Shown here in pieces: positions 3,394 through 48,506 of a stretch of DNA of 61,502 nt; position 1 is the stretch's first letter, and the number at the start of each line of letters is the position of its first letter. Below the pieces are notes generated by a model. That model was not told where the DNA came from and made no database searches. It saw only the letters and a list, made by a program, of their open reading frames with translations. Source of the DNA: Nevskiales bacterium (lineage in GTDB: Bacteria; Pseudomonadota; Gammaproteobacteria; Nevskiales; DATLYR01); assembly GCA_035574475.1 (NCBI GenBank), contig DATLYR010000164.1:1-61502 (forward strand), given 5' to 3'. The position numbers and the translations under genes were made by a program.

Positions 3394-3402
3394 TGTGTGC
3401 TC

Positions 3403-3657
3403 CTACCAGGTCAGCCAGGGGAAAAAGGCGAACCAGCCATTGAGCAGATACAGGCCGGTGAGCATCAGCAGGATGCTGCCGGTCAACTCGAAAGCCCTTT
3501 GGTAGCGTCCGAGCGGTTTCATATGCTCGATCCGCTCCAGCGCGGCGGCCGCCAGAGCCAGGGGAATCGCGCGGCCGATGGCGAAACTGGTCAACATCGC
3601 CGCGCCGAACAGCGGCGAGCCGCCGGCTGCCGGCGTGTAGAACAGCTCGATCCTCAT
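3403..3657 (-). CDS. CcdA/DsbD-type transmembrane domain protein, short form or C-terminal stub
   Basis: 84 aa with 2 TM helices, resembling the C-terminal third of DsbD_2/CcdA proteins. ATGA overlap with the merR-like stop. The expected N-terminal ~140 aa are absent. Confidence 0.45.
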   Translation of the reverse strand: MRIELFYTPAAGGSPLFGAAMLTSFAIGRAIPLALAAAALERIEHMKPLGRYQRAFELTGSILLMLTGLYLLNGWFAFFPWLTW

Positions 3658-4076
3658 GGCGCGCGCTTGGCCTCAAAGCTGACCGCTTCCAGGGCCGCCA
3701 GGATCGGACAGTCATCGACAGGCAGCGCCCCACCCGAACACTCGGCGATCAGCACGTCGAGCGCGGCCGACATCGCCTGCATGGCGCGAATCTTGGCGGC
3801 GAGCTGGAGTTTCTTCTCGATGGCGCGGCTCTTTATGTCGTCGCAGCATGCGCCGTCGGCCTGGCGCAGGTGCAGCAGGTCACGAATCTCTGCGAGCGTG
3901 AAGCCGCAAGCCTGGGCGTGCTGGATGAAGCGCACCCGCCGCACCGCATCCTCGCCATAGAGGCGATAGCCGCTATCGGTCTTGCCTGCCGGGATGAGCA
4001 GCCCCTCGCGCTCGTAATAGCGCAGCGCGTCGGGGCTGATACCGGCAGCCTTTGCCAGCTTGCCGATGGTCAGCAT
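3654..4076 (-). CDS. MerR-family heavy-metal-responsive transcriptional regulator
   Basis: MLTIGKLAKAAGISPDALRYYEREGLL HTH domain. Cys77-Cys78 plus C113-x9-C123 (AECSGGALPVDDC) lie at the metal-binding positions of CadR/ZntR/MerR-type regulators. Confidence 0.9.
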   Translation of the reverse strand: MLTIGKLAKAAGISPDALRYYEREGLLIPAGKTDSGYRLYGEDAVRRVRFIQHAQACGFTLAEIRDLLHLRQADGACCDDIKSRAIEKKLQLAAKIRAMQAMSAALDVLIAECSGGALPVDDCPILAALEAVSFEAKRAP

Positions 4077-4345
4077 CAGGGCTGGCCGAGGCCGGCGGCG
4101 CGCAGGCTCGCCTCATCGACACCGCGATCAACGCAGCAGCCGGCGAGCCGGCCATCGATCGCCACGGCTGGCACCGAGCGCACGCCGAGCGCCTTCGCGC
4201 GCTGTGCGACGGCCAAGTCGCGCATGTCGAGCACATCGACTTCGCACGAGGAGCAGGCCAGGCTTTTTACAAGGGTTTCGACATCGGTGCAGGCCGGGCA
4301 GCCGGCGCTGAACACCTCGACTTTGCGCTTGGCAGTCATGTTCAA
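4076..4345 (-). CDS. small thioredoxin-fold protein (redox-active disulfide protein-like)
   Basis: 89 aa with GCPAC near the N-terminus plus CSSC and GCC. It is the first gene behind the MerR-type promoter. Confidence 0.7.
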   Translation of the reverse strand: MNMTAKRKVEVFSAGCPACTDVETLVKSLACSSCEVDVLDMRDLAVAQRAKALGVRSVPAVAIDGRLAGCCVDRGVDEASLRAAGLGQP

Positions 4346-4581: not shown

Positions 4582-4898
4582 GGACGCATGGCCTTCGCGG
4601 TCGCCCACTGCACGGCCGGCGACCTGCTCATCGGCATGACGGCAGTCGTGCTCGCCCTGCTGGCGCAGCGGGCGGGCACTTTCCGGGAGTGGCTGCGCAG
4701 GGCGGTACCCCTGACCGCAATCCTGCTCGCCATGCTCTACATGGCACCCGCGAGCGGCTCAGCCTGACGGCAGGCAACTGGGCCTATGCGCCCTGGATGC
4801 CCATCGTGCCCGGCATCGAGATCGGGCTGTCACCCTTGCTGCAATGGCCGGCTGTGATCGCCTGCGCCTGGTGGTGGGCGCACCGCGCCGTCCGTTAA
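4582..4898 (+). pseudogene. small membrane protein gene with an apparent 1-nt frameshift
   Basis: MAFAVAHCTAGDLLIGMTAVVLALLAQ...LAMLYMAPASGSA* (4582-4761) continues sensibly in ORF 4689-4898 (..RERLSLTAGNWAYAPWMPIVPGIEIGLSPLLQW..). The frame changes near 4745. Confidence 0.3.
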
Positions 4899-5971
4899 AG
4901 CAGCCGGCCGATCATCCAGGCGACTGCCATCGCCAGCGGCAAGGTCGCTACCCAGGACAGCAGGATGTTGCCCAGGGCTTTCCAGTCCAGGGTGCCCGCG
5001 TTCGCCCCGACACCGGCGATCGCGCCCACCGAGACGTGGGTAGTCGAAACCGGCAGCCCCAGCGGACTGGCGCACAGCACCAAGGCAGCGGTGATCAGGT
5101 TTGCGCTCATGCCTTGCGTGGGGTCCATGCGGCTGACGCGCTGGCTCATCGTTTGCGCGACGCGACGCGCGAACAGCCAGCCACCGGCCGCCATCACGGC
5201 CGCAATCATCAGGATCGACAGGGGCGCATCCACGAGCTGCGCGGCGAGCAGCAGCGCCGTCAGCTTGGGGGTGTCGTTGACGCCCCGGGCGAAGCAGATC
5301 GACATCGCGGACAGCACGTGCAGGCGGTCCATGCTCCGAGACACCGACCAGCGCACTGGCGCGTCCAGCCGCTCGCAGTCCGCAGCCCCCGCCACGATGA
5401 CCGCAGGGACCGCCAAACGCACCACTGCTGCCCGATCGCCCGGCGCAGACGTTGCCGGTTCCAACGGCACGACGCATAGGCAATCCCTGGCGCCGGTGAG
5501 CGGCCGCAACACACGATACGCCACCGCGCTCAACAGGGCTGCGAGCAAGGGGCTGAGCAGCAGCGGCAGCAAGAACATGACCACCAGCCGGTCGAGGTGC
5601 ACAGCGCTGTTCTGCGCCAGATTCGCCCCCACCAGCGCGCCGATCAAGGCATGCGTGGTGGAGACCGGAAGCCCGAGTCGGGTGGCCATCAGCACCGTCA
5701 TGGCCGCGCCGCTGGCCACCGCGGTCATCAGGCGAGGATCCCCAACGACCGCATCGGGCACCAGCCCTTTGCCGGTGAAGGATTGCGCCAGCGCGGCGGC
5801 CAGGCCCCAGGATGCGAGGCTGCCGGCCACCGTGGCCAGCGTGGCCCAGGCGAGCGCCCGGCGATAGTCCAGGATCTGCGCTCCCCAGACCGTGGCAAAG
5901 CCTTTGAAGTTGTCGTTGGCGCCGTTGCCAAGCGCCAACACCAGCACGGCCACGAGGGTGAGCAGTTCCAT
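4895..5971 (-). CDS. inorganic phosphate transporter, PiT (PHO4) family
   Basis: 358 aa. GANDNFKG at the N-terminus, duplicated GLPVSTTH motifs and GVNDTPK are all typical of PiT. Confidence 0.9.
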   Translation of the reverse strand: MELLTLVAVLVLALGNGANDNFKGFATVWGAQILDYRRALAWATLATVAGSLASWGLAAALAQSFTGKGLVPDAVVGDPRLMTAVASGAAMTVLMATRLGLPVSTTHALIGALVGANLAQNSAVHLDRLVVMFLLPLLLSPLLAALLSAVAYRVLRPLTGARDCLCVVPLEPATSAPGDRAAVVRLAVPAVIVAGAADCERLDAPVRWSVSRSMDRLHVLSAMSICFARGVNDTPKLTALLLAAQLVDAPLSILMIAAVMAAGGWLFARRVAQTMSQRVSRMDPTQGMSANLITAALVLCASPLGLPVSTTHVSVGAIAGVGANAGTLDWKALGNILLSWVATLPLAMAVAWMIGRLL

Positions 5972-5986
5972 GGCTGGCCTCGTGGT

Positions 5987-7027
5987 TTAGCAGCAGCTCG
6001 ATGCCGCCGCCCCCGTCGCCCCGACATCGAACGGCAAGCCGCCACCGCAGCCGGCAAACAGGCCATAGTGGCGGGAGAAGTCACCGATGAAATCGAAGTG
6101 CGGGGCAAAGCGCGTCTCGTGGAGCATGCGCCAAGTGTTGCCGCACACCGGAAAGACACGCCCGGTTTCGATGTCGTGGTGTTTGTCGAGCGTGAAGCGA
6201 TCCGGGCACTGCGGGATGCTGCCACGGTAGATCACGGCCTGACCGTAGTCTTCGCAGGCACTCTCCAGTGCGTCGAGCTTGAACAGCCGGTAAGTGGCCG
6301 AAAAAAAGCGCGCGCTGCCCAGCTTGGCCGCCAACGTCGGGTCCGTCACGGCCAGCGGCCGGTCGCTGACCAGGCGCGGGTCGGCAAACCCTGCCGCCTG
6401 CGCCAGTCGAAGGAAATCGTTCCAGTACAGCGCACCGCCCAGGCATTCACCGTAGAGCACCGGATCGTGGCGCACCGCCTGCGGCAAACGCCGGTCGGCA
6501 TAGACATCGGAGAAATAGAACTCGCCGCCCGGCTTGAGCAGCCGCTGCACGCCCGCCAGCACGGCCGGTTTGTCCGGTGAGAGGTTGACCACGCAGTTGG
6601 AGACGATGACATCGAAGCTGCCGGGGGGCAGATCGAGCGCGTCGAGCTGTTCGATATAGCCTTTGACGAAGCGCACATTGGCGTAGCCGAAGCGCTCGGC
6701 GTGCCAGTCGCGGTGTTGCTGCGCCACCGCGAGCTGCTCGTCGGTCATGTCCACACCCACCACCTCGCCATGGGGGCCGACCAGTTGCGCGAGCAAATAC
6801 ACATCGCGGCCGCTGCCGCAGCCCAGATCGAGCACGCGGCAGCCCTCCAGCAACGGCGGGCACACCAGTCCGCAGCCGTAGTAGCGCGCCTGCACCTCGG
6901 GGTGGATGTTGGCCAGCAGCGGTTTGAGCCACTCGGGCACCTGGCTGGGGTCACAGCAGGCGCTGGTCTTCAAGTCGTCTGAGTGCTGAAGCTGTTTGCC
7001 GTAATAATCTTGGACCAGGGCATGCAT
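5987..7027 (-). CDS. arsM: arsenite S-adenosylmethionine methyltransferase
   Basis: Real start is MHALVQDYYGK at 7027, inside ORF 5987-7927. It has N-terminal TSACCD, the SAM motif VLDLGCGSGRD, SNCVVNLSPDK, YGECLGGALY and a C-terminal SSCC. Confidence 0.85.
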   Translation of the reverse strand: MHALVQDYYGKQLQHSDDLKTSACCDPSQVPEWLKPLLANIHPEVQARYYGCGLVCPPLLEGCRVLDLGCGSGRDVYLLAQLVGPHGEVVGVDMTDEQLAVAQQHRDWHAERFGYANVRFVKGYIEQLDALDLPPGSFDVIVSNCVVNLSPDKPAVLAGVQRLLKPGGEFYFSDVYADRRLPQAVRHDPVLYGECLGGALYWNDFLRLAQAAGFADPRLVSDRPLAVTDPTLAAKLGSARFFSATYRLFKLDALESACEDYGQAVIYRGSIPQCPDRFTLDKHHDIETGRVFPVCGNTWRMLHETRFAPHFDFIGDFSRHYGLFAGCGGGLPFDVGATGAAASSCC

Positions 7028-7047
7028 GGGAAGTGGCCTCCACGGCG

Positions 7048-7392
7048 TCAGGGGAATTGACAGGGCGCTTCGCGCGCCACGAAATGCAGATCGACCTCCA
7101 GCGGCCGCGCAAGCAGAGCCATGCTGGCCATCGCCTCGGCTTCGACGGCGGCCACGCCGTCCCACTCGCGCACGCGGTAACGGGTGGGCGGCACCCTGTC
7201 CGACAAGCGCACCACACGCCACGGTGCCGGGGGCACGTCCGTTGTGACCCCGGCAAAGCGCCCCACCCAATGCACGGGGGCGGAGGTGGCGGCGGAGGGA
7301 TGGTTTGCTGGGATGGGGGGCGATGGGGTTTGCGCCTGGGCCGCCGAGAGGGTCAGGACGCCCAGCGCCAGGGTCCACAGACGTGCGTTCAT
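7048..7392 (-). pseudogene. DUF3047-like secreted protein, N-terminal half only
   Basis: MNARLWTLALGVLTLSAAQA signal peptide, then PWRVVRLSDRVPPTRYRVREWDGVAAVEAEAMASMALLARPLEVDL, which matches the start of DUF3047. The ORF stops 20 nt before arsM, at about half the usual length. Confidence 0.5.
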
Positions 7393-8015
7393 GCCGCCTC
7401 CTGCCACGCCGCGGGCAGCGCGGCCAGATGTTCGGGTTCGTCGATGTCAGTGAGGGCCGGCGCTTCGGCCCAGTGCCAGCCGAGCGCCGCCATGCGTGCG
7501 CGGGTGACCGCGGCCACCTCTGGTGTGCTCCAGGGCATGTCGGCAAACAAGCGGGGGTGCGGCTCGCGCACGCCCAAGGCCACATAGCCACCATCGGTGC
7601 TGGGCACGAGCACGGCATCGTGCGTGTGCAGCCCTTGCACCACGGCGTGCAGGGCTGCAGCGTCGAGCGCCGGGCAGTCCGTGCCGATGAACAGCAGCGC
7701 GTGCCCTGCTGCCGCATGGTGTTCGGCCATGCGCCACAGACGCTCGCCCAAATCGCCCGCGCCTTGATCCACCCAGCACAACTGTTGCGCCAGCGCAGCG
7801 GGCAGAGCGTCCTGCCAGGCCGGGTGGGTCGGCGCGGGGCTGGTGCACAGCACGACGTCGCCCACCGCGGACGCCAGCGCTTGCTGCACGGTGTGCGTGA
7901 GCATGCGCTGTGCCAGCCGCGCCGCACCCTCTGGCCCCAGGGCCGGGATCAGCCGCGTTTTGACCACACCGGGCTGCGGCGCTTTGGCGAACACGAGCAC
8001 GCGCACGGGCCTCAT
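7389..8015 (-). CDS. DUF2064 / TIGR04282-type glycosyltransferase (arsenosugar-cluster type)
   Basis: Start MRPVRVLVFAKAPQPGVVKTRL at 8015, in ATGA overlap with the upstream gene. FIGTDCP and DGGY motifs are present. Confidence 0.8.
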   Translation of the reverse strand: MRPVRVLVFAKAPQPGVVKTRLIPALGPEGAARLAQRMLTHTVQQALASAVGDVVLCTSPAPTHPAWQDALPAALAQQLCWVDQGAGDLGERLWRMAEHHAAAGHALLFIGTDCPALDAAALHAVVQGLHTHDAVLVPSTDGGYVALGVREPHPRLFADMPWSTPEVAAVTRARMAALGWHWAEAPALTDIDEPEHLAALPAAWQEAA

Positions 8016-8686
8016 CGGTACGCCCTCGCCAACACGTCGGGATCGGCCCCGAAAAAATAACGGGCGCGCAGCCACCACATCAGAACGATGGTGCGCCACA
8101 CACCGCGACTCTCCCAGCGGCGGCCCGAGGTGGTCACGCGCAGACGCAGGCAGGCCGGGCGCGACAGGCGCTTGAGCCGGCGCGAGAGTTCGATGTCTTC
8201 CATCAGCGCCTGGGCGGGATAGCCCCCCACCTGTGCAAAGGCTGCGCGGGAGACGAAGAGGGCCTGATCGCCGGTGGCGATGCCGCTCAACCGCGAACGC
8301 CCATTCATCAGCGCGGCCACCACTCCCAGCCAGTGGCTGCGGCCGTCGATGTGGACGTCGAAGCGCCCCCAGACATGGCGGCCGTCGCGCAGCGCCGCTT
8401 CGATGGCCACGGCGGCCCCCGCAGGCAGCCGTGTATCGGCATGCAGAAACAGCAGCGCATCGCCCTGTGCTGCCGCCGCACCGGCGTTCATTTGCGTGGC
8501 GCGGCCGCGCGTGGCGGTGAGCACCGTAAAGCCCGCGGCCTGCGCCAGCGCAGGCGAGCCATCGTGGCTGCCGCCATCGACCAGGAGCACCTCGTGCCCC
8601 TGTCGCCGCAGCACATCGAGCTGTGCCAGCAAGGCAGGCAACTGGGCTGCTTCATTGAGCATCGGCACGATGATCGACAGCTTCAT
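8012..8686 (-). CDS. family-2 glycosyltransferase, TIGR04283-type (arsenosugar-cluster type)
   Basis: Start MKLSIIVPMLNE at 8686 (ATGA overlap). It has LLVDGGSHDGS, FLHADT and MEDIELSRRL motifs. Confidence 0.8.
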   Translation of the reverse strand: MKLSIIVPMLNEAAQLPALLAQLDVLRRQGHEVLLVDGGSHDGSPALAQAAGFTVLTATRGRATQMNAGAAAAQGDALLFLHADTRLPAGAAVAIEAALRDGRHVWGRFDVHIDGRSHWLGVVAALMNGRSRLSGIATGDQALFVSRAAFAQVGGYPAQALMEDIELSRRLKRLSRPACLRLRVTTSGRRWESRGVWRTIVLMWWLRARYFFGADPDVLARAYR

Positions 8687-10842
8687 GCCGCTCCTCGCAT
8701 CCAGCGGTGGTAGCGCTCCACCCACGCCAGCAGCCGCTGGGGTGCATGGGCGCGCTTCCATTCGCCCGCGGCGTATTTATTGGCTTCCGCCCAGGTGGGG
8801 TAGGTATGGATGGTGGAGAGGATTTTGTTCAGCCCCAGCCCGTGCTTCATTGCCAGCACGAACTCGGCGAGCAGGTCGCCAGCATGTTCCCCGACGATGG
8901 TCACGCCCAGAATGCGATCGCGCCCCGGCTCGGTCAGCACCTTGACGAAGCCATGGGCCGCGCCATCGGCGATCGCGCGATCCAGATCATCCAGCCCATA
9001 GCGGGTCACCTCATAGGCGATGCCCTTGGCTTGCGCGTCTTGCTCGTTGAGACCGACACGGGCCACTTCCGGATCGATGAACGTCGTCCACGGGATCACC
9101 GAGTCATCCACCTTGAACTTCTTGAAGCGGCCAAACAGCGCATTGACGGCGGCATACCAGGCCTGGTGAGAGGCCGTGTGGGTGAACTGGTAGGGCCCGG
9201 CGACATCACCGGCGGCGTAGATATTCGGATACAGCGTTTCCAGATACGCGTTGGTGACGACGGTGCGCTGCGTTTCGATACCCAGCTCCTCCAGACCATA
9301 GCCTTTGAGCCGGGCCACCCGGCCCACGGCGCAGATGAGTTCATCGAATTCGATGCGCTGTTCACGGCCCGTGTGTTCGACGACGATGAGCTTGCGTTCG
9401 CCCTCACGTTCGCAACGCAGCGCCTGGTGGCCCGTGAGCACCTCGACGCCGTCGCGGGCCAGTGCCTCCTCGGCCAGCGCCGAGACATCCGCGTCTTCGC
9501 GGATCAGCAAGCGCGGCGCCATTTCGATCTGGGTGACCTTCACCCCCAGTCGCGCAAACGCCTGTGCCAGCTCGCAGCCGATCGGCCCGCCACCCAGCAC
9601 GACCATGCGGCCGGGCATCGCATCGCGCTGTGCCAAGGTCTCCCACAAGGTATCCGAGGTGAGGTAACCCACCGCGTCGAGACCGGGCAAGGGCGGGACG
9701 AAGGGTTGTGCCCCGGCAGCGATGACGATACTGCGAGCCGTCAGGCGTTGGCTGCCATCGTTGCGCTGGATCTCCACCGTCCACGGATCCACGATCTTCG
9801 CGTAACCCTGCACCACATCGACGCCCAGATTGGTGTAGCGCTCGATGCTGTCATGCGGTTCGACCGCGCGGATCACCGCGTGCACCCGCCGCATGACCGC
9901 TTGGAAGGAAAAGGCCGGCTCACTGGCGGTCAGCCCGTAATGGTCGGCATGGCGGATGAGATGCGCGGCCTTGGCGCTTTTGATCAAGGCCTTGCTGGGC
10001 ACGCAGCCGTAGTTGAGGCAATCGCCCCCCATCTTGTGCGCTTCCACCAGCGTCACCTTGGCCTTGACCGCAGCCGCGATATAGGCCGTGACCAGACCCG
10101 CTGCACCGCCACCGATCACGATCAGGTTGCGATCGAAACGGGCTGGTCGCTGCCAGCGTGCATACAGACGCCGCCGCTGCAGTGCGCGCACCAGTGCACG
10201 GGCCAGCCATGGAAACACGCCCAGCAGCGCAAACGCGCCGAGCAGCGTGGGCGAGACGATGTCCGAGAGGCTGCGCAACTGCGCGATCTGGGTGCCTGCA
10301 TTCACGTACACCAGCGTGCCGGCCAGCATGCCGAGCTGGCTCACCCAGTAGAACGTCCAGGCACGCATCGCGGTCAGGCCCATCAGCACATTGATGAGGA
10401 AGAAGGGCACCACCGGTACCAGGCGCAGCGTGAACAAATACAACGCGCCATCGCGCCGAATGCCCGCATCGATGGCCGAAAGGCGCTCACCGAAGCGACG
10501 CTGCACCCCGTCGCGCAGCAGGTAGCGCGAAACCGCAAACGCCAGCAGCGCCCCCACGCTGGAGGCAAAGGACGCGATCAGCGTGCCCTGCCACAGGCCG
10601 AACAAGGCCCCCGCGGCCAGCGTCAGCACTGCCGCGCCGGGCAGCGACAGCGCCGTGACCGCCACATACAGCATGAAAAACCCCAGCACCGCCGCGACCG
10701 GGTGGGCAGCGCGCCAGGCCTGCCAATCGGCCAAGCCAGCCTGCACGGCCGCCAGGTTCAGCCAGCGCGGCCCCCCAGCGGCAAAGAATGCGATCAGCGC
10801 CAGCGCGATCGCGGCCAGTACGAGCGCTTTACGCGCATTCAT
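8683..10842 (-). CDS. fusion protein: TVP38/TMEM64 (DedA-like) membrane domain plus flavoprotein disulfide reductase
   Basis: Start MNARKALVL at 10842. The N-terminal ~230 aa are multi-TM (VPVVPFFLINVLMG). The rest has GGGAAG, the redox centre GGDCLNYGCVPSK, a second GGGPIGCE fold and HTYPTWAE. Confidence 0.85.
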   Translation of the reverse strand: MNARKALVLAAIALALIAFFAAGGPRWLNLAAVQAGLADWQAWRAAHPVAAVLGFFMLYVAVTALSLPGAAVLTLAAGALFGLWQGTLIASFASSVGALLAFAVSRYLLRDGVQRRFGERLSAIDAGIRRDGALYLFTLRLVPVVPFFLINVLMGLTAMRAWTFYWVSQLGMLAGTLVYVNAGTQIAQLRSLSDIVSPTLLGAFALLGVFPWLARALVRALQRRRLYARWQRPARFDRNLIVIGGGAAGLVTAYIAAAVKAKVTLVEAHKMGGDCLNYGCVPSKALIKSAKAAHLIRHADHYGLTASEPAFSFQAVMRRVHAVIRAVEPHDSIERYTNLGVDVVQGYAKIVDPWTVEIQRNDGSQRLTARSIVIAAGAQPFVPPLPGLDAVGYLTSDTLWETLAQRDAMPGRMVVLGGGPIGCELAQAFARLGVKVTQIEMAPRLLIREDADVSALAEEALARDGVEVLTGHQALRCEREGERKLIVVEHTGREQRIEFDELICAVGRVARLKGYGLEELGIETQRTVVTNAYLETLYPNIYAAGDVAGPYQFTHTASHQAWYAAVNALFGRFKKFKVDDSVIPWTTFIDPEVARVGLNEQDAQAKGIAYEVTRYGLDDLDRAIADGAAHGFVKVLTEPGRDRILGVTIVGEHAGDLLAEFVLAMKHGLGLNKILSTIHTYPTWAEANKYAAGEWKRAHAPQRLLAWVERYHRWMRGAA

Positions 10843-11810
10843 CGGGCATCTCCTGCCAGGGCTCCGCCGCAACTGCTGCCCTGGCCCGCGGTGCAGCCGT
10901 AGCAGTGGTCGGCCACGCAGACCGGCCCACCGTCCACATCCTGCGCCAGCAGATCCCGCAGATGGGCGCGTCCAGGCCGCGCACCGAGCGGCAGGCCGAG
11001 CTGCTGGTTGAAGTCGCAGTCGTAGAGATACCCCTGCCAGTCCACACTGACGAGATCGCGGCACATCACGCCCTCGAGGTTGTCGGCGCGGAAGTTGGCC
11101 TTGAGCAAATCCATATAGCCCGCGAACTGCCCTTTGGAAATCAGCCACGAGCCAAAGCGGTTGATCGGCATGTTGGCCAGCGCATAGAGCCGGTTGAAGA
11201 CGATGCCGAAATGCTCGCCCAGCTCGCGCCGGTAGGCGGCTTCCAGTTTCGTCTGCTCCGGCGGCAGGCTGGGGCCTTGCGGGTTGTAGACGAGGTTGAG
11301 CACCAACCCCAAACCTTCCTGTCCGTAGCCCAAGGCATTGAGCCGCTGCAAGCCGGCGATGCTTTTGTCGAACACGCCATCACCACGTTGCCGATCCACA
11401 TTGTCGGCCGAATAACAGGGCAGCGAGGCCACCACCTCCACCTGCTGCGCGGCCAGGAACTCGGCCAAATCGTCCTGCCCCGGCTCGAACAGGATGGTGA
11501 GGTTGCAACGGTCGATCACGCGCACGCCCAACGCGCGCGCCTGCTGCACCAGTGTCCGAAAGCCCGGATGCAGCTCGGGTGCGCCGCCGGTAAGGTCCAG
11601 CACCTCGATGCGGCGCGCCACCAGCACCTTGGGGATCAGCGCCAGCGTGTCGGCCTCCATCATCTCTTTGCGATGCGGGCCGGCATTGACATGGCAATGC
11701 ACGCAGGACTGGTTGCAGCGGTAGCCCAGATTGACCTGCAAGGTGCTGGTACGACGGCGCGTGAGCGATGGAAAGTCGGTGGCCTCGAGCAAGGGCAAGG
11801 TGGCGTGCAT
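10839..11810 (-). CDS. arsS: radical SAM/Cys-rich protein, ArsS-type
   Basis: Start MHATLPLLE at 11810. It has the CNQSCVHC radical-SAM cluster motif and a C-terminal DHCYGCTAGQGSSCGG tail. Confidence 0.85.
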   Translation of the reverse strand: MHATLPLLEATDFPSLTRRRTSTLQVNLGYRCNQSCVHCHVNAGPHRKEMMEADTLALIPKVLVARRIEVLDLTGGAPELHPGFRTLVQQARALGVRVIDRCNLTILFEPGQDDLAEFLAAQQVEVVASLPCYSADNVDRQRGDGVFDKSIAGLQRLNALGYGQEGLGLVLNLVYNPQGPSLPPEQTKLEAAYRRELGEHFGIVFNRLYALANMPINRFGSWLISKGQFAGYMDLLKANFRADNLEGVMCRDLVSVDWQGYLYDCDFNQQLGLPLGARPGRAHLRDLLAQDVDGGPVCVADHCYGCTAGQGSSCGGALAGDAR

Positions 11811-11861: not shown

Positions 11862-11891
11862 TTGGTCGCAGGCTGTGGCGAGTTTCTTACA
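11862..11891 (-). promoter_or_regulatory. putative ECF-sigma promoter (copy 1) upstream of arsS
   Basis: Minus strand reads TGTAAGAAACTCGCCACAGCCTGCGACCAAG. It shares TGTAA-N18-CGACCAA with four other sites and lies 51 nt upstream of the arsS ATG. Confidence 0.55.
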
Positions 11892-11924: not shown

Positions 11925-11954
11925 TGTAATGAAAGCGCCGCTCGTCACGACCAA
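11925..11954 (+). promoter_or_regulatory. putative ECF-sigma promoter (copy 2) upstream of the AhpD-like gene
   Basis: TGTAATGAAAGCGCCGCTCGTCACGACCAAT, 64 nt upstream of the ATG at 12019. Confidence 0.5.
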
Positions 11955-12018: not shown

Positions 12019-12591
12019 ATGACCGCTGCCATTGCCAAACTCGACCTGCCTGCCCAGACCTTGGAGTCCACCTCCGGAAAGGCGCGTGAGATGCTCGAAA
12101 CCGCCCAGGCCAGGCTGGGTTTCGTGCCCAACATGTACGCCAACATGGTCAACTCACCCGGCTTGCTGGAAACCTATCTCATGGGGTACGAGCGCTTCCG
12201 GCAGGACAGTGGCTTCACCCCCGCCGAGCAGGAAGTCGTGTTCCTGACCATCAGCCGCTTTCATCGCTGCACCTACTGCATGGCGGCACACAGCATGATC
12301 GCCGACAAGGTGTCGAAGGTGCCCGCCCCGGTGCTGCAGGCGCTGCGTGACGGCACGGCCATTCCCGACGCCAAGCTCGCGGCTTTGTCCGCCTTCACCC
12401 ACGCGATGGTGGAAAGCCGCGGGGCGCCCACGCCCGAGCAGGTTCAGGCGTTTCGCGCCGCGGGCTACACCGACCGCCAGGTGCTCGAGATCATCCTCGC
12501 CATCGCGGTCAAGACGCTGAGCAACTACAGCAACCACGTGTTGCACACCCCCGTGGACGCAGCCTTCCAGGCCTATGCCTGGTCGGACTGA
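12019..12591 (+). CDS. carboxymuconolactone decarboxylase (AhpD-like) family protein
   Basis: RBS AGGAGA then ATG at 12019. It has the RCTYCMAAH (CxxC) motif and SNY..H typical of the CMD/AhpD fold. Confidence 0.8.
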   Translation: MTAAIAKLDLPAQTLESTSGKAREMLETAQARLGFVPNMYANMVNSPGLLETYLMGYERFRQDSGFTPAEQEVVFLTISRFHRCTYCMAAHSMIADKVSKVPAPVLQALRDGTAIPDAKLAALSAFTHAMVESRGAPTPEQVQAFRAAGYTDRQVLEIILAIAVKTLSNYSNHVLHTPVDAAFQAYAWSD

Positions 12592-12612: not shown

Positions 12613-12641
12613 TGTAAGAACCACGCCGCTCACACGACCAA
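12613..12641 (+). promoter_or_regulatory. putative ECF-sigma promoter (copy 3) upstream of bufA
   Basis: TGTAAGAACCACGCCGCTCACACGACCAAA, 76 nt upstream of the ATG at 12718. Confidence 0.55.
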
Positions 12642-12717
12642 ACACCCGTCACGTCGCCTTTGCGGCCCCAGCGACGCCGACGCCATCCAGGGGCCTCGAC
12701 CGCACAGGAGATTTGCC

Positions 12718-13023
12718 ATGAACCAGAAACTGTCCGCTGCCGCTCTCACGCTGGCGCTGGGTACCGTGTTGGCCACTGCCGCGACCACCGCCACGGCGCA
12801 GGACATGGGGATGGGGGGGAAGGAAAAATGCTATGGCGTCGCCCTGAAGGGCAAAAACGATTGTAAGGCTGGTCCAGGCACGACCTGTGCCGGAACCGCG
12901 GCAAAGGACTATCAAGGCAACGCCTGGAAGTTCGTCCCCGCCGGCACGTGCGAAAAGACCGCTTCACCGACCTCGCCCACGGGTTTCGGTCAGCTCAAGG
13001 AGTTCAAAGAAAAGAAGGCTTAA
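12718..13023 (+). CDS. bufA: DUF2282 / BufA1-type bufferin precursor peptide
   Basis: RBS AGGAG then ATG at 12718. Sec signal [29 protein letters not shown], followed by a core with four Cys: EKCYG, NDCKAG, TTCAG and GTCEK. Confidence 0.85.
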
Positions 13024-13089
13024 GGCATCGCTACTGCAATCGGGCCTATGGCATGCCGCCATAGGCCCGGCATTCGTCAGGAGAGTGCC

Positions 13090-13986
13090 ATGGCATGGCC
13101 ACCGCCCACGACATTCCAGACTTTGTCGGTATTGCCATTGCGTGCCGGTTTGGGACTCAAGTCCGAGCATTACCGCGTGATCCTCGATCAGGTGCCGGAT
13201 GTAGGTTTCTTCGAGATCCATGCGGAGAACTATTTCGTCGCAGGCGGCCCCATGCACCACTCTCTGGGCCGCATTCGGGAGCGCTACGCCCTCTCCATCC
13301 ACGGGGTGGGCTTGTCCATTGGCGGCGCGGGGCTGCTGGACCGCGCGCATCTGGCGGCGCTGAAAGCCTTGCTGGCGCGCTACCAACCGCAGGCGTTTTC
13401 GGAACATCTGGCCTGGTCCAGCCACGGCGGGCATTTCCTCAACGACTTGCTGCCGCTGCCCTATACCGACATCACCCTGCAGCGCGTGTGCGCCCACATC
13501 GACCAGGTGCAGGAGACGCTGGGCCGCCGCCTGCTGCTGGAAAACCCCGCGACCTATGTCGAATTCGCCGCTTCCACCTGGGACGAGGCGGACTTCATCG
13601 CCGAGGTGGTGCGCCGCACCGGCTGTGGCCTGCTGCTCGACGTCAATAACGCGTATGTGAGCTGCACCAACCACGGCCGTGACCCTGACGCCTATCTGAC
13701 GCGGCTGCCCCTGCACGCGGTGGGGGAAATCCACCTCGCTGGCTTTGCCGAGGACGTGGATGGTGCGGGCGCGCGACTGCTGATCGACAGCCACGGTGCG
13801 CCGGTGGACGATGCCGTGTGGGCCTTGTACCGGCGGGCGCTGTGCTACACCGGCCCGGTGCCGACCTTGATCGAGCGCGACCAGAACCTGCCGCCCTTCG
13901 AGGTGCTGTTGGCAGAAGCGCATGCCGCCGACGCGCTGCTGGCCGAGGCGGCAGCAACGATTCCGATGCTGCAGGAGGTGGTGTGA
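13090..13986 (+). CDS. bufB: DUF692 / MNIO (multinuclear non-haem iron oxidative) enzyme, BufB-type
   Basis: [45 protein letters not shown] and ERD motifs fit the DUF692 TIM-barrel family. I chose the ATG at 13090 because it follows an AGGAGAG RBS. Confidence 0.9.
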
Positions 13987-14753
13987 TGCACGCCTGGAGG
14001 CAAGCGCTGCTCGATCCTTCTCTGCCACCGCCGCCCGGTCTGGTCGCGTGGAACGGCTCGGAGGTGGCCACCCGCTTTGCGGTGTACCGCAACAACGTCG
14101 TCGTCTCGCTCATCGACGCCCTGGCCGATACCTATCCGGTGGTGGTGCAGTTGGTAGGCGAGGCGTTTTTCCGCGCGATGGCGCGTGAATACGTGCGCGC
14201 GCATCTGCCGACCTCGCCCGTGCTCGCGCAGTACGGCGGTGATTTCGCCACGTTCATCGACACCTTTGCCCCGGCGGCGTCGGTGCCGTATCTCTCGGAC
14301 GTGGCCCGGCTGGAGTGGGCCTACCTGCAGGCCTTGCACGCCCCGGATGCGCCGGTGCTGACCCCGGCGGCCCTGCAGGCGGCGCTCGCCGATCCCGAAC
14401 GCCTGCCCGCGCTGCGCCTCCATCTGCACCCCTCGCTGCACGGCTTGCGGCTGCGCCACGCCGCCGTGTCGATCTGGGCAGCGCACCACGGGGAGGGTGC
14501 GCTGGAGGCGATCGACCCTGGGCGCGCGGAAAACGCCGTGGTCGTGCGCACCGACCTCTCCGTGCAAGTGATTCCCGTGGCGGATGGCGCCGTCGCCGTG
14601 CTGGATGACCTGGCCGCGGGCTTGCCCCTGGGCGCCGTGTTCGAGCGCCTGGCCGCGCGCGATGCCCCGCTCGATCTGGGCGAATGGCTGGGCCTGCTGC
14701 TGCGGGTGCAAGGGCTGAGCGCACTGAGCTTGACACCCACCGATGATGCGTAA
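13986..14753 (+). CDS. bufC: DUF2063 protein, MNIO partner (BufC-type)
   Basis: ATG at 13986 overlaps the bufB TGA. FAVYRNNVVVSLIDALADTYPVV and ARLEWAY are typical of DUF2063. Confidence 0.85.
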   Translation: MHAWRQALLDPSLPPPPGLVAWNGSEVATRFAVYRNNVVVSLIDALADTYPVVVQLVGEAFFRAMAREYVRAHLPTSPVLAQYGGDFATFIDTFAPAASVPYLSDVARLEWAYLQALHAPDAPVLTPAALQAALADPERLPALRLHLHPSLHGLRLRHAAVSIWAAHHGEGALEAIDPGRAENAVVVRTDLSVQVIPVADGAVAVLDDLAAGLPLGAVFERLAARDAPLDLGEWLGLLLRVQGLSALSLTPTDDA

Positions 14754-14765
14754 GGAGACCCCATC

Positions 14766-15263
14766 ATGAACACCTGCACCCCTTGGACCCAATGGCCGCG
14801 CCGCATCATCGCCCTGTTCGAGCGCATTCCGCACAGCGCCATCGCGCTGCTCGCACGGTTTTCTATCGCAGCGGTGTTTTGGAAATCGGGCCAGACGAAG
14901 ATCGAAGGGCTGGCTATCGACCTCATTGACGGGCAGTGGCAGCTCGGCTGGCCGCATCTGTCCGACAGCGCCGTGGAGCTGTTTCGCAGCGAGTACCAAC
15001 TGCCCGTGCTGCCGCCGGAACTGGCGGCGCTGCTGGCGGCGTTTGCCGAACATCTGTTCCCGCTGCTGCTGCTCGTCGGACTGGCCACGCGCTTTTCCGC
15101 ATTGGCCCTGCTGGGCATGACCGCGGTGATCCAGTTTCTGGTCTACCCCGGCGCCTACCCGACCCACGGCACCTGGGCGGCGGTGCTGCTCTACCTGATG
15201 GTGTATGGGCCGGGGACGTTATCGATGGATCATGTCATCGCGCGTCGTTGCCGCCACGGCTGA
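14766..15263 (+). CDS. bufD: DoxX-family membrane protein (BufD-type)
   Basis: 165 aa with 4 TM helices. RFSIAAVFWKSGQTK and AEHLFPLLLLVGLATRFSAL fit the DoxX pattern. Confidence 0.8.
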   Translation: MNTCTPWTQWPRRIIALFERIPHSAIALLARFSIAAVFWKSGQTKIEGLAIDLIDGQWQLGWPHLSDSAVELFRSEYQLPVLPPELAALLAAFAEHLFPLLLLVGLATRFSALALLGMTAVIQFLVYPGAYPTHGTWAAVLLYLMVYGPGTLSMDHVIARRCRHG

Positions 15264-15275: not shown

Positions 15276-16070
15276 ATGAACGCAGGCCTGCACCGTGTCG
15301 GTCGCTGGCTCGCTCGGTATCTCGCACGGCCCGTGCATGTGCATGGCACGGCACCGCCGGTACCGCCCGAGCGCCTGTTGGCCTGTCTGCAACCGGGGGA
15401 CGTGCTGCTGGTGGAAGGCAACAGCCGCGTCAGCACGGCGATCAAGTACCTGACCCAGTCCACCTGGTCGCACGCCGCGCTCTTTGTGGGCTTTGCCCCG
15501 TTGACCGCGGTGGGGCGCGATCCCTCGCATTGCTTCGTCGAGGCCGACATCGTCGATGGCGTACGCAGCGTTGGGGTGGATGCGTTTGCGGGCTTGCACA
15601 CCCGCATCTGCCGTCCGGTGGGCTTGCGTGAGGCCGATCGTGAGCGGCTCATCGCCTACGTGATCGCCCGCCTGGGCCACCAGTACGATTTGCGCAATGT
15701 GATCGATCTGGCGCGTTACCTGCTGCCGACCCCACCCGTGCCAACCCGCTGGCGGCGACGCCTGCTGGCCCTGGGCAGCGGCGAGCCCACGCGCGCCATC
15801 TGCTCCACGCTGATCGCGCAGGCTTTCCAGTCCATCCGCTATCCCATTCTGCCCATCATTGAGCAACGACAAACGGAAGCGGCAGACTGCCCTGGATGCC
15901 TGGAAGAAATCCTGCACGTGCGCCACCACAGCCTGTTTACACCGCGCGACTTTGACGTGTCCCCCTATTTCGAGGTGGTCAAACCCACCTTGGCCGCTGG
16001 CTTCGATTACACCGCCTTGCATTGGGGCGAGTCACCGACCCCACCCGCCATGCAGCCACGTCAGTCCTGA
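15276..16070 (+). CDS. YiiX-like permuted papain-fold (NlpC/P60 superfamily) protein
   Basis: It starts 13 nt after the doxX stop. The order His (STWSHAALFVG) then Cys (RAICSTLIAQAF) is characteristic of permuted YiiX/YaeF-type enzymes. I saw no signal peptide. Confidence 0.65.
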   Translation: MNAGLHRVGRWLARYLARPVHVHGTAPPVPPERLLACLQPGDVLLVEGNSRVSTAIKYLTQSTWSHAALFVGFAPLTAVGRDPSHCFVEADIVDGVRSVGVDAFAGLHTRICRPVGLREADRERLIAYVIARLGHQYDLRNVIDLARYLLPTPPVPTRWRRRLLALGSGEPTRAICSTLIAQAFQSIRYPILPIIEQRQTEAADCPGCLEEILHVRHHSLFTPRDFDVSPYFEVVKPTLAAGFDYTALHWGESPTPPAMQPRQS

Positions 16071-16288
16071 CCGGCATCCTCATCCCCGGCAAACGGGCTC
16101 TCGGCACGCTCGTTCTCACCGCGGGCATAAGCGCGTGTAATGCGTCTGAGTGCGTGCATCTGCGCATGGAAGTTGCGGCAGCCCGAGCACATCATCACGT
16201 GCATCTTGAGCGGAAGCTTTTCCCTGAGCGTCAGCTTCCGCTCCTGCGCCTCGGACATCAAGCGGGTGGCCTCGACACAGTTCAACAT
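16061..16288 (-). CDS. short zf-HC2 (ZAS-type) anti-sigma factor without a TM segment
   Basis: Start MLNCVEATRLMSEAQE at 16288, overlapping the sigma gene stop (ATGTTGA). It has the HVMMCSGC (HxxxCxxC) motif. It is 75 aa with an acidic tail. Confidence 0.7.
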   Translation of the reverse strand: MLNCVEATRLMSEAQERKLTLREKLPLKMHVMMCSGCRNFHAQMHALRRITRAYARGENERAESPFAGDEDAGQD

Positions 16289-16911
16289 GGTTTGCCCTCC
16301 AGAAACCAACGGTTTTCCAGGCACTCGCGCAATCTCAGGCGGGCCCGGTGCAGCATGACGTTCAGATTGTTCACGGTGATGCCGACACTGGCGCAAATCT
16401 GCGGTGATTCCAGTTCGAGAAATTCCCGCATCATGAACACCTGCGCCTGTCGAGCCGGGAGCTGAGTCAGACAGGCTTCGAACACCCGCCAGAACTGCGC
16501 ATCGTGCAGCGCGCCTTCCGGGTCCGCCCAGCGCTGCGGCCGTTCATCGGCGTGCCAGAAGCCGCGCCGGTCGAACAATTCGGAAAAGTCCTCGTCATCC
16601 TGTGCCGCCTGCAGCAGGCTGCTGGCATCCACCAGGCGCTGTCTTTGGCGCAGCTCGTCGGCGATCTTGTTCTTGAGGATCGTAAACACCCAGGTCTTGA
16701 AGGCTGAGCGTCCGCCGAACGAAGCGGCGTTTTTCATCGCGCCAATCAGCGCCTCTTGCACGGCATCTTCGGCCGCGTGCGGATCCGATAGTTGCAGCGT
16801 GGCGAACTTGAGCATCTGCCGACGCAAGTCCTCCAGGAACGCGCCCTCCAAGGGAGATACGCCTGACTCGGCTGCGGGTGTCGTCACGCTGGGCGACGCC
16901 TCATGGTTCAT
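16282..16911 (-). CDS. ECF (sigma-70 family group 4) sigma factor
   Basis: 209 aa. Region 2 is DAVQEALIGAMKNAASFGGRSAFKTWVFTILKNKIADELR. Region 4 is LPARQAQVFMMREFLELESPQICASVGITVNNLNVMLHRARLRLRECL. Confidence 0.9.
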   Translation of the reverse strand: MNHEASPSVTTPAAESGVSPLEGAFLEDLRRQMLKFATLQLSDPHAAEDAVQEALIGAMKNAASFGGRSAFKTWVFTILKNKIADELRQRQRLVDASSLLQAAQDDEDFSELFDRRGFWHADERPQRWADPEGALHDAQFWRVFEACLTQLPARQAQVFMMREFLELESPQICASVGITVNNLNVMLHRARLRLRECLENRWFLEGKPC

Positions 16912-17410
16912 CGTCTTGTTCCCTCCTCAATCCACACCTCGGCCCCCGATGCCTGCCGTCTCAAGGCATGGCGTGCCACCAACGCCAGTTCCACTCCCGC
17001 CGCACCGGCGCCGACCACCACCAGCCGAAATCGCCGCGTGCACCGCGCCGCTTCGATCACCTCGGGCCAGGCGGCGAACAAGCGCTCCAGCGGCTTGACC
17101 GGCAGCAAGCGCACACCGGCCAGTTCCAGTCAAACGGTGTCGGTGTCACTGCCGACATCCAGTGACAGCAGATCGTATTCCAGATGCCGCTCGTCGGGCA
17201 GGAGCACACAGCGCCGATCAGCATCCATGGCGGCCACGCGGCCCTCGACGAGACGTACGCGGGCTTCGGCACACAAAGGGCGCAGCTCAATGCGGCATTG
17301 CTCCGCCCGGTGAAGACGTTTCATGATCTCGACTCGCTACCGCGACGGGCGAGTTGGCGGCGTGCCGGTGCGATGACCACGCGCTGGCATGGAATGAACC
17401 CCATCATACG
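16908..17410 (-). pseudogene. decayed FAD-dependent pyridine nucleotide-disulfide oxidoreductase gene
   Basis: ORFs 17324-17130 (..CRIELRPLCAEARVRLVEG..YDLLSLDVGS) and 17114-16908 (VRLLPVKPLERLF...RLVVVGAGAAGVELA) are in the same frame, split by an in-frame TGA at 17130-17132. The N-terminal GxGxxG region is missing apart from a 28-codon stub at 17407, and the 3' end is cut at the sigma start codon. Confidence 0.55.
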
Positions 17411-17440: not shown

Positions 17441-17470
17441 TTGGTCGATGCGACGGGCCCGTTTCTTACA
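17441..17470 (-). promoter_or_regulatory. putative ECF-sigma promoter (copy 4) heading the oxidoreductase'-sigma-anti-sigma unit
   Basis: Minus strand reads TGTAAGAAACGGGCCCGTCGCATCGACCAAT. Confidence 0.55.
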
Positions 17471-17487: not shown

Positions 17488-17517
17488 TGTAAGAACCTCG
17501 CCACGGCCCGCGACCAA
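17488..17517 (+). promoter_or_regulatory. putative ECF-sigma promoter (copy 5) upstream of the 17528 membrane protein gene
   Basis: TGTAAGAACCTCGCCACGGCCCGCGACCAAG, 28/31 identical to copy 1. The -10-like element ends 10 nt before the ATG at 17528. Confidence 0.55.
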
Positions 17518-17527: not shown

Positions 17528-17974
17528 ATGAACATCATGAACTGGAAACGTCTTTCCCTCACCGCGGCGACGATCTTCGTGATCGGTTTGGCGTGGAACG
17601 GCCTCATTCATGGCCTCGTGCTGCGCGATGCGAACGAGGCTCTGGACGGCGTGGCGCGCCCGCTGGCGCAGCGCCCGTTGGCGCTCGGCCTCGCGCTCAC
17701 CGTAGGCATCGCCGTTTTGTTCGCTTACTCGTACGCAGCCTTCGTGCGCACGCCCGGGGTCAAACGCGCGCTCGGCCACGGCGTCTTCTTCGCGCTGCTG
17801 ACGGGACTTCTCGTCGATCTGAACCAGTACGTTCTCTATCCGATCCCGGCGTCGCTGGCCGCGGCCTGGTTCGTCTTCGGGCTGATCGAGTTCTGCCTTT
17901 ACGGCGTGGTTGCGTGCTGGCTCTACCCGTTTCCCGCGACGATCGATGGGACACGAGGTTCTGGTGCGTCGTGA
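17528..17974 (+). CDS. hypothetical integral membrane protein (about 4 TM)
   Basis: MNIMNWKRLSLTAATIFVIGLAWNGLIHG... with hydrophobic helices throughout. I recognised no family. Alternative start at 17537. Confidence 0.55.
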   Translation: MNIMNWKRLSLTAATIFVIGLAWNGLIHGLVLRDANEALDGVARPLAQRPLALGLALTVGIAVLFAYSYAAFVRTPGVKRALGHGVFFALLTGLLVDLNQYVLYPIPASLAAAWFVFGLIEFCLYGVVACWLYPFPATIDGTRGSGAS

Positions 17975-26391: not shown

Positions 26392-26728
26392 CTGCTTGCT
26401 CCGCTCACTGCCATCCTACGTTGCTTCTGTCTGAACTCTACTTTTCCTTGGGAAGGGGTTTCACCACTCGCGCGGGTAGAAGGGGCGCAACCGATGGGGG
26501 GACAGTCGGGTAGTGGCGCCGGGCGGCAGGACTTTGGAAACATTTGGGCATAAACTACAAACGTGATCCGCGCCACGGTGCTGCAACGCAGCAGCATCGA
26601 TCCCCCGATGTGTGGCGAGGATGCTCCGGCCTTCAGGCCGGAGTGACTCACAAGACAAACGATATTGGAGACAGACAAGCCAATGCTGCGCCGCTTTTCC
26701 CAAAACGGGCAGCGCTCGGGGACCCGCC

Positions 26729-32522: not shown

Positions 32523-32593
32523 GGTGTTTTCTCAGCCGACAAAGGGATCAATACCGGCCATGGGCAGCGCCCCATGGCCGGGCATGCACGGCC

Positions 32594-34870: not shown

Positions 34871-34906
34871 TGTCTTGCTCCTTGAGATTCTTCGTGTCCC
34901 GCGATT

Positions 34907-34978: not shown

Positions 34979-34980
34979 GG

Positions 34981-37125: not shown

Positions 37126-37146
37126 TTGCGCGCCTCGTGTATCTGC

Positions 37147-48503: not shown

Positions 48504-48506
48504 GCC

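Follow-up and report, generated by a model that had tools for sequence, protein, structure and literature searches.

The stretch of DNA analysed here, hereafter the window, comprises 61,502 nucleotides of contig DATLYR010000164.1 in the Nevskiales bacterium assembly GCA_035574475.1. We examined the interval 12613-15263 of its plus strand, whose first base is the start of a promoter motif of the extracytoplasmic function (ECF) type and whose last base closes the stop codon of a DoxX gene. An earlier note, made from the letters, had described this interval as a bufferin-type operon for a ribosomally synthesised and post-translationally modified peptide (RiPP), and had proposed profile searches as a check. 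When the open reading frames (ORFs) were compared with Pfam profiles and with NCBIfam models that carry curated cut-offs, the four of them fell in the DUF2282, MNIO/DUF692, DUF2063 and DoxX families. The genes follow one another in the order bufA-bufB-bufC-bufD at intergenic distances of -1 to 66 nt, and each is present as a single copy in the window. Since the profiles place all four ORFs and BufB passes the curated equivalog cut-off, the reading as a bufferin-type RiPP operon is correct. In both its identity and its general mechanism, bufABCD is very probably a functional, canonical Buf1-type bufferin biosynthetic gene cluster, and its host was taken to be a Burkholderiales-like betaproteobacterium.

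The first gene, bufA (12718..13023), encodes a precursor of 101 aa that matched PF10048 (DUF2282/BufA1) with E=1.6e-24 and 86.1 bits (cut-off 22.4), and an AGGAG ribosome-binding site lies 8 nt 5' of its start. The product of bufB (13090..13986, 298 aa) is an MNIO (DUF692) bufferin maturase; it matched PF05114 (MbnB_TglH_ChrH) with E=4.5e-106 and scored 385.8 bits on the NCBIfam model NF050167 (MNIO_BufB), for which the cut-off is 310, with profile positions 1-261 of 262 covered. The same protein stayed under the cut-offs of HvfB (241.7 against 360) and MbnB (58.6 against 325), and also under those of ApyH and ChrH. In a PDB sequence search its nearest solved structure was 3BWW, a DUF692 protein (E=3.4e-45), and PDB searches with BufA and BufC gave no match. 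Position 13090, which is served by an AGGAGA ribosome-binding site and agrees with the start called independently on a Logan contig, is the likeliest start of bufB; an alternative ATG lies further upstream at 13048. The partner protein encoded by bufC (13986..14753, 255 aa) has an N-terminal DUF2063 domain (PF09836, E=2.3e-25, 89 bits) and scored 42.5 on the HvfC model, against a cut-off of 142. In Buf1 clusters this partner also has an RRE-like domain at its C-terminus, one that is defined by structure. The ATG of bufC and the TGA of bufB have one base in common (gtgTGATGcac, TGATG at 13984-13988), as had been read before. The DoxX-family membrane protein of 165 aa is encoded by bufD (14766..15263), which starts 12 nt past the bufC stop; it matched PF07681 with E=2.9e-17 and 63.5 bits, and the score on the HvfX model was 44 against a cut-off of 80.

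The operon extends beyond bufD, because a further gene begins 12 nt past the DoxX stop. This accessory gene (15276..16070) encodes a C92 protein of the YaeF/YiiX-type, permuted papain-like family (264 aa; PF05708, E=1.5e-7), for which no NCBIfam model was matched. A C92 gene occupies the same position after bufD in five relatives (loci L019, L033, L058, L072 and L077) and also adjoins arsS clusters in L085, L131 and L135. All five genes of the operon are intact and full length against the profiles. Third-position GC was 0.73-0.85 in the operon frames, compared with 0.68-0.75 in long antisense ORFs. A second precursor or a second MNIO gene was looked for across the window, and none was found.

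The precursor showed the features that the earlier note had read from it, namely the length of 101 aa, a Sec signal ending in ATTATA|QD and four Cys in the contexts EKCYG, NDCKAG, TTCAG and GTCEK. The N-terminus is hydrophobic, and cleavage after ATA, a site read by eye, divides the protein into a 27-aa Sec signal peptide and a 74-aa core. In the core numbered from this site, the Cys residues stand at positions 11, 22, 30 and 51, that is, at a spacing of 11/8/21. EGKCG repeats are absent from the precursor. When 79 BufA homologues were aligned, all four Cys were found to be kept in 78 of them; in the remaining one, from locus L063, the fourth Cys and the tail had been lost through an apparent frame change. 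A Pro/Ser/Lys-rich C-terminal extension of 20 residues had also been noted on this precursor. The tail does exist; it measures 21 residues, and its consensus, ...CEKT.S.TSPTG(F/Y/H/M)GQL.EFKEKKA, is kept in nearly all of the 79 homologues. An unusual, locus-specific extension was thereby ruled out, and judging from the alignment the tail is a feature of the BufA subfamily, not a peculiarity of the locus. An identical copy of BufA was found only on an 8-kb Logan contig.

The promoter motif TGTAAGAA-N14/15-CGACCAA, which has the bipartite form TGTAA-N17/18-CGACCAA, occurred five times in the window and 0 times in 50 shuffles. Each of the five is intergenic and oriented towards a gene, and together they fall within 11.86-17.52 kb. 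Elsewhere in the window, including the arsS cluster and the surroundings of the MerR genes, no copy with at least 13 of the 15 matches was found. The copy upstream of bufA (12613..12641, plus strand) has the form TGTAAGAA-N14-CGACCAA, matches at 15 of 15 positions and precedes the bufA ATG by 105 nt. The minus-strand copy at 11862..11891 is directed towards an arsS cluster of the arsenosugar type, and the plus-strand copy at 11925..11954 towards a gene for an AhpD/carboxymuconolactone decarboxylase (CMD)-like protein; the latter arrangement is the same in L033. On the other side of the operon, the minus-strand copy at 17441..17470 is directed towards a sigma/anti-sigma operon, suggesting a putative autoregulation, and a divergent plus-strand copy at 17488..17517 is directed towards a gene for a membrane protein of 148 aa.

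The motif was conserved in the relatives, so that the shared ECF-type promoter proposed in the earlier note was borne out by this conservation as well as by the copies in the window. Species-representative genomes were scanned with BufB, which gave more than 375 relatives, and the best 80 were compared in detail. Their BufB proteins are 65-75% identical to that of the window and belong to Rhodoferax, Sulfuritalea, Zoogloea, Hydrogenophaga, Thermomonas, Pseudomonas and other genera; the closest genome relatives have 75% identity for BufB (Rhodoferax) and 82% for ArsS (Caldimonas). The general form of the motif in the relatives is TGTAAGAA-N14/15-CGAC(C/T)AA, and a threshold of at least 12 of 15 matches was applied there. 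Of 78 related loci, 52 (67%) carry it at a distance of about 90-130 nt upstream of the bufA start, as against 2% of random 300-nt windows taken from the same loci. Thermomonas haemolytica DSM 13605 (L022) and Hydrogenophaga taeniospiralis (L055) are among the relatives with the motif in front of bufA, and Zoogloea ramigera NBRC 15342 (L031) has a weaker copy. In the reverse comparison, for which 80 arsS loci were collected, 34 (42.5%) had the motif no more than 300 nt upstream of arsS, with a background of 2.7%. A stricter pattern gave 80 matches in 1.29 Mb, of which 46 lay upstream of bufA, 8 upstream of arsS, 3 upstream of VTT-FAD genes and 2 upstream of sigma genes; one lay upstream of a CMD gene, one upstream of a methyltransferase gene, and 19 had no target gene assigned. 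Taken together, these findings suggest that the bufferin operon is probably co-regulated with its neighbouring units through the shared motif.

The gene order bufA-bufB-bufC-bufD was the same in essentially all of the 80 related loci. The bufC gene directly followed bufB in 79 of them, with 43-61% identity, and in the single exception the contig ends 40 nt past its bufB match; bufD followed bufC in most. The bufABCD operon is also annotated, in generic terms, on about 400 plasmids. About 29 of the 80 loci have an arsS gene, a VTT-FAD gene or both no further than 10 kb from bufABCD, and 11 have an AhpD-like homologue at such a distance. The full arrangement seen in the window recurred in L002, L033, L035, L038 and L072, the last of these being Herminiimonas fonticola S-94. 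Homologues of the sigma and anti-sigma genes adjoin bufABCD or arsS in many loci; among the 80 arsS loci they adjoin arsS in 11-14, and Caldimonas manganoxidans (ATCC BAA-369, L082) carries the sigma, anti-sigma, arsS, VTT-FAD, GT2 and methyltransferase genes on one strand. These neighbourhoods occasionally also include the C92 gene, the AhpD-like gene, a TIGR03169 flavin adenine dinucleotide (FAD) oxidoreductase, an HD-GYP protein and S-methyl-5'-thioadenosine phosphorylase (MTAP).

The sigma factor of the window is encoded on the minus strand at 16282..16911. This protein of 209 aa has the Sigma70_r2 and r4_2 domains and scored 318.6 bits on NF009196 (cut-off 287) and 244 bits on TIGR02943. 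The start of the anti-sigma gene (16061..16288, minus strand) overlaps the end of the sigma gene, and the two converge on the C92 gene from the minus strand. The anti-sigma factor, 75 aa long, matched PF13490 (zf-HC2) and scored 71.3 bits on NF052368 (antisigmaE, cut-off 50). Its translation contains the zinc-finger anti-sigma (ZAS) motif C4...H30-x3-C34-x2-C37 (H30VMMC34SGC37), and it has a hydrophilic C-terminus and no hydrophobic segment; the protein is thus of the zf-HC2/ZAS type and not part of a SigF/NrsF (DUF1109)-type pair, which is frequent, though not obligatory, in Buf1 clusters. Because the anti-sigma factor is a soluble ZAS protein, the trigger is probably a cytoplasmic thiol-reactive stress and not periplasmic copper alone, a class that would include Cu(I), oxidants, As, Hg and Cd.

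From its adjacency to these genes and from the motif upstream of its own operon, we infer that this sigma factor reads the five motifs. In agreement with such an arrangement, the motif was also present on the sigma strand 5' of the sigma gene in L002, L019, L033, L035, L038, L055 and L077, and divergent pairs of motifs were found in L002, L033, L038 and L077. Three points weigh against this picture of the regulation. About one third of the relatives, chiefly Pseudomonas loci, have no motif upstream of bufA; a different ECF sigma factor could read the motif; and in Cupriavidus metallidurans no dependence of the gig (buf) operon on the adjacent ECF sigma factor RpoQ could be demonstrated (PMC13492112).

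Between the motif at 17441..17470 and the sigma gene lies a remnant of a TIGR03169-type FAD oxidoreductase gene in two frames (16908..17324, minus strand). In L002, L033, L035 and L077 a full-length gene that matches the fragments occupies this position, and the L033 oxidoreductase scored 333 bits on TIGR03169 (cut-off 310). The promoter-to-sigma gap of L033 also holds an HD-GYP gene and a 153-aa ORF, both of which are absent at the window locus. On the plus side, the hydrophobic 148-aa protein (17528..17974), taken from a gene call on the Logan contig, had no Pfam or NCBIfam match and no homologue in 160 related loci. In both loci that were read, the plus side of the divergent pair precedes an MTAP gene instead (L033, 16683-17549; L038, 17085-18008). 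MTAP fits a regulon with S-adenosylmethionine (SAM)-consuming enzymes such as ArsS and ArsM.

On these grounds the following course of events can be proposed. BufA would be synthesised with a Sec signal peptide, as expected from its homology to Buf1 of C. vibrioides. In the cytoplasm, the multi-iron oxidase BufB and its DUF2063 partner BufC would turn Cys22 (NDCKAG) and Cys30 (TTCAG) into 5-thiooxazoles; the precursor would then be exported via Sec and cleaved after ATA, the outer Cys11 and Cys51 would pair as a disulfide, and the mature small protein of 74 residues would chelate copper in the periplasm. Each of these steps is inferred from the C. vibrioides system, in which the Cys of BufA1 are Cys12/23/31/52, CysII and CysIII are converted to 5-thiooxazoles, CysI and CysIV form a disulfide, and BufB and BufC are necessary and sufficient for the modification (PMC11626156). 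The conversion of Cys to thiooxazoles in the earlier note accordingly holds for the two central residues of the characterised homologue and not for the outer two (PMC11626156). DoxX, which is dispensable in C. vibrioides for both modification and copper protection (PMC11626156), would be a conserved, non-essential accessory protein, and the C92 hydrolase-like gene may be an occasional add-on.

As for expression, the operon would be transcribed from the ECF-type promoter, recognised by the ECF sigma factor that is encoded 1 kb downstream and is presumably held by the soluble ZAS anti-sigma factor. The likely signal would be cytoplasmic thiol-reactive stress, that is, oxidants such as hypochlorous acid (HOCl) or thiophilic metals and metalloids. 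The same promoter type appears to drive four neighbours, namely the arsS cluster, the AhpD-like gene, the sigma operon and the small membrane-protein gene, and because of this the bufferin operon may be regarded as a module of a compact regulon found repeatedly among the Beta- and Gammaproteobacteria.

A hairpin was observed between bufA and bufB (13040..13070, plus strand). It has a perfect 12-bp stem with a closing G-U pair and a 5-nt loop, the 81-nt segment that contains it folds at -37.7 kcal/mol (z=-3.1), it is unique in the window, and no T-run follows it. A conserved attenuator was ruled out, as a strong stem was found in few relatives and the distribution of stem lengths equalled the background. 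The hairpin could, speculatively, be a local attenuator or a stabiliser of the mRNA, perhaps tuning the ratio of precursor to enzyme. Scans of 11.7-17.6 kb found no sigma-70 promoter, and the terminator hits there were no better than background. An Rfam scan of the whole window gave no match. The single tRNA call by ARAGORN (52398-52487) was discounted, since it falls inside a recB-like ORF.

The arsenosugar-type cluster (4895..11810, minus strand) is divergent from the AhpD-like gene and consists of five genes. The radical SAM gene arsS (10839-11810) scored 461 bits on TIGR04167 (cut-off 300). It is followed by a gene for a fusion of VTT/DedA with an FAD-containing pyridine-nucleotide-disulfide oxidoreductase (8683 to ~10840, by Pfam), a TIGR04283 "arsenosugar" glycosyltransferase gene (8012-8761; 280 bits, cut-off 182), a gene for an ArsM-like methyltransferase (5987-7927), assigned by Pfam with the ArsM models below their cut-offs, and a PHO4-family transporter gene (4895-5971, by Pfam). 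The AhpD/CMD-like "peroxidase-related" protein (12019..12591, plus strand, 190 aa) matched PF02627, and its 74 bits on TIGR01926 fell below the cut-off of 81.8.

The earlier note had placed the operon in a metal/metalloid island, between an arsenic-type cluster and mer/MerR modules. On the upstream side this description holds. The window starts with the tail of a Tn21/Tn501-type mer operon (the 3' end of merA, MerD, which scored 161 bits where the cut-off is 103.65, and an EAL-domain protein), and over bases 5-1656 the identity to the merA 3' end-merD-merE-urf2 regions found on plasmids is about 76%; next come a ZntR/CueR/MerR-like regulator at 3.65-4.08 kb, which is below every equivalog cut-off, and then the arsenic-type cluster. 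The modules thus exist, all of them upstream; downstream there are only an orphan MerC and a MerR_2 chaperone-modulator-type protein at 48.5 kb, so that the island does not continue on that side. The genes downstream of the sigma operon, which include those for 3-demethylubiquinone-9 3-methyltransferase-family, AHSA1-domain, TetR and GFA-family proteins and, further on, for a thiolase, an acyl-CoA synthetase, a GntR-aminotransferase and recB and recC, are mostly not metal-related, the orphan MerC being the exception.

Several other groups of genes were observed in the window. On the minus strand at 2995-4345, a thioredoxin-like (MTH895/ArsE-type) gene forms a tight group with the ZntR/CueR/MerR-like regulator gene and two small ORFs (84 and 132 aa), for which no family match was found. 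A MalT/LuxR-type regulator is encoded at 26612-29575. The orphan MerC, at 32.1 kb, stands directly downstream of an acetone-carboxylase/hydantoinase-type cluster made up of Hydantoinase_A, a gamma subunit, a second Hydantoinase_A and Hydantoinase_B, the whole occupying 32094-39492 on the minus strand. At 45982-50775, three small heat shock protein (sHSP20) genes, a DnaJ-like (CbpA-type) gene, the MerR_2 (CbpM-type) gene and an FtsH paralogue are found together, a grouping reminiscent of transmissible heat-resistance or protein-quality-control loci; GC falls to 0.58 at 46-48 kb.

Of the competing explanations, the most probable keeps the same machinery and gives it a main role other than copper buffering. 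The peptide would be made in response to thiol-reactive oxidants (HOCl, chlorite) or to the thiophilic metals and metalloids As, Se, Hg, Cd or Au, and would counter them in the periplasm as a scavenger or chelator, alongside the co-regulated arsS/ArsM cluster. This role is a possibility of lesser weight. The presence of a soluble ZAS anti-sigma factor as the sensor, instead of a periplasmic metal sensor, speaks for it, and so does the shared motif, which stands, at this locus as in many genomes, ahead of both the arsenosugar-type cluster and the AhpD-like gene. Furthermore, DUF692/DUF2063 mutants of three species show sensitivity to chlorite (bioRxiv 10.1101/072470), HOCl and H2O2 elicit a response from the systems of Haemophilus and Neisseria (PMC7907618), Cr and Cd elicit one from sigmaF of Caulobacter (PMC3511200), and fusion proteins of MerC and Buf1 exist (PMC12452194). 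However, the sole biochemical and genetic data on Buf1 peptides demonstrate that they bind copper and protect against it (PMC11626156). A ZAS sensor could also be set off by Cu(I), a thiol-reactive ion in its own right; shared regulation is no proof of a shared substrate; and in most of the 80 bufB loci, about 50, neither an arsS nor a VTT-FAD gene lies closer than 10 kb. We hence put forward with reserve that something other than, or additional to, copper is the relevant stress or ligand. The suggestion in the earlier note that the stressor may not be copper alone is reasonable, and it is already present in the literature for Au/Cu, Cr/Cd, chlorite and HOCl (PMC11626156, PMC3511200, bioRxiv 10.1101/072470, PMC7907618).

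The other two alternatives concern the chemistry and the state of the operon. Instead of 5-thiooxazoles, BufB might make the oxazolone-thioamide pairs known from methanobactin and initially suggested for oxazolin (HvfA). Such a product has the same mass as the thiooxazole product and is hard to distinguish from it (bioRxiv 10.64898/2026.06.05.730506), and BufB does match the HvfB and MbnB models weakly. Nevertheless, the BufB equivalog cut-off is the only one that the protein passes, nuclear magnetic resonance (NMR) of Buf1 favours thiooxazoles (PMC11626156), and later work assigns thiooxazoles to the Hvf-type products too (PMC13097082; bioRxiv 10.64898/2026.07.17.739211); we consider the oxazolone-thioamide product very unlikely. 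Least credible of all is that the operon is a decaying or silent relic in an accessory region, as might be thought from the fragmentary TIGR03169 oxidoreductase gene, the missing HD-GYP gene and 153-aa ORF, the lack of an MTAP gene after the plus-side motif (unlike L033 and L038), the mer operon tail about 11 kb upstream and a GC of 0.58-0.69 across 1-52 kb against 0.70-0.73 around recBC, since the five genes are intact, the precursor keeps its four Cys and its signal peptide, the ribosome-binding sites and the 15/15 promoter motif are in place, and third-position GC is typical of coding sequence. The reading of bufABCD as a functional Buf1-type operon whose product binds copper thus stands as the preferred one.

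As a bufferin operon the locus offers nothing new, as it belongs to a family of thousands whose chemistry and part in copper handling are already worked out; published surveys list more than 14,000 MNIO sequences and about 21,000 precursors. Regulation by a ZAS protein instead of NrsF likewise has a precedent in the Hvf systems of Neisseria and Haemophilus. The only part that might interest a specialist is the recurrent promoter-level link that these sequences suggest between Buf1 and ArsS, of which a literature search found no report. In the window, five copies of the ECF-type motif within 6 kb join the bufferin operon, the arsenosugar-type cluster, the AhpD-like gene and the ZAS-held sigma factor. 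It is conceivable, though we would not yet favour it, that Buf1 operons in many Beta- and Gammaproteobacteria are a module of a conserved regulon of an ECF sigma factor and a cytoplasmic ZAS protein, with the promoter TGTAAGAA-N14/15-CGACYAA and with the ArsS/ArsM/glycosyltransferase/VTT-FAD cluster, the AhpD-like protein, the TIGR03169 oxidoreductase and MTAP as its other recurrent modules, and that bufferins, if the link is functional, act beyond copper. Should this be true, bufferins, and perhaps DoxX, would act on As, Se or thiol-oxidising stress together with organo-arsenical or organo-selenium metabolism. In dozens of genera the motif stands upstream of bufA and of arsS, which provides a handle on the stress that induces bufferins outside Caulobacter, and likewise on the purpose of the proteobacterial ArsS-type clusters.

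The closest known system is buf1ABCD of C. vibrioides (CCNA_03363-03366), the founding Buf1 cluster, which has the same four families in the same order as the window (PMC11626156). Both precursors have a Sec signal peptide and four Cys spaced at 11/8/21. BufC is 255 aa long here and 254 aa in Caulobacter, and BufB 298 aa here and 280 aa there (lengths of CC3255/CC3256, PMC3511200). The core of the window precursor is longer, 74 aa compared with 68 aa, because of its longer conserved C-terminal tail. The promoters have a similar GTAA...CGA architecture. Indeed, the sigmaF site GTAACC-N16-CGAA, which was mapped experimentally upstream of the two buf operons of Caulobacter (PMC3511200), resembles GTAAGA-N15/16-CGAC of the window motif. 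The regulators differ, in that the ECF sigma factor of the window is paired with the soluble 75-aa ZAS protein and SigF of Caulobacter with the membrane protein NrsF (DUF1109), which bufferin surveys give as the Buf1-associated anti-sigma factor (PMC12452194). Unlike buf1 of Caulobacter, the window operon has a C92 gene after DoxX and shares its motif with an arsS cluster.

In C. metallidurans, the gigPABT genes with rpoQ-rsqA show, like the window, a DUF2282-DUF692-DUF2063-DoxX operon beside an ECF sigma/anti-sigma pair (PMC10304878, PMC13492112). This betaproteobacterial gig operon is metal-induced and makes a minor contribution to copper resistance (PMC10304878, PMC13492112). RsqA has been described as membrane-bound and RpoQ has been assigned to ECF16, whereas the anti-sigma factor of the window is soluble, and in the window, unlike C. 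metallidurans, a clear common motif connects the sigma operon with bufA.

Methanobactin biosynthesis by MbnABC resembles the Buf system in that an MNIO (DUF692) enzyme and a partner oxidise Cys of a ribosomal peptide to yield a copper ligand. Pfam and NCBIfam searches of the window operon found neither an MbnA- nor an MbnC-type gene. The secreted methanobactin serves copper acquisition as a chalkophore, whereas a bufferin is a Sec-exported periplasmic small protein.

With regard to regulation, the window resembles the Neisseria SigE/MseR and Haemophilus RpoE2/HrsE pairs, which combine a very short cytoplasmic ZAS anti-sigma factor (67 residues long in Haemophilus and 75 in the window) with an oxidant response (PMC7907618, PMC11252979, PMC13097082). 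In Haemophilus, an ECF sigma factor under the control of the 67-aa cytoplasmic ZAS protein responds to HOCl and H2O2 and regulates a DoxX-containing protein complex that is uncharacterised, and the SigE regulon of Neisseria contains three hypothetical proteins together with a DoxX protein (PMC7907618). The adjacent Hvf (oxazolin/gonophorin) operon of these bacteria, of the MNIO-DUF2063-DoxX type, yields a secreted copper-binding peptide with thiol heterocycles (PMC7907618, PMC11252979, PMC13097082). The two systems are nevertheless distinct, as the Hvf precursor is an EGKCG-repeat peptide and that of the window a DUF2282 protein, and BufB and BufC of the window fail the HvfB and HvfC cut-offs. 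Where the regulon of Neisseria and Haemophilus has msrAB, that of the window has the arsS cluster instead.

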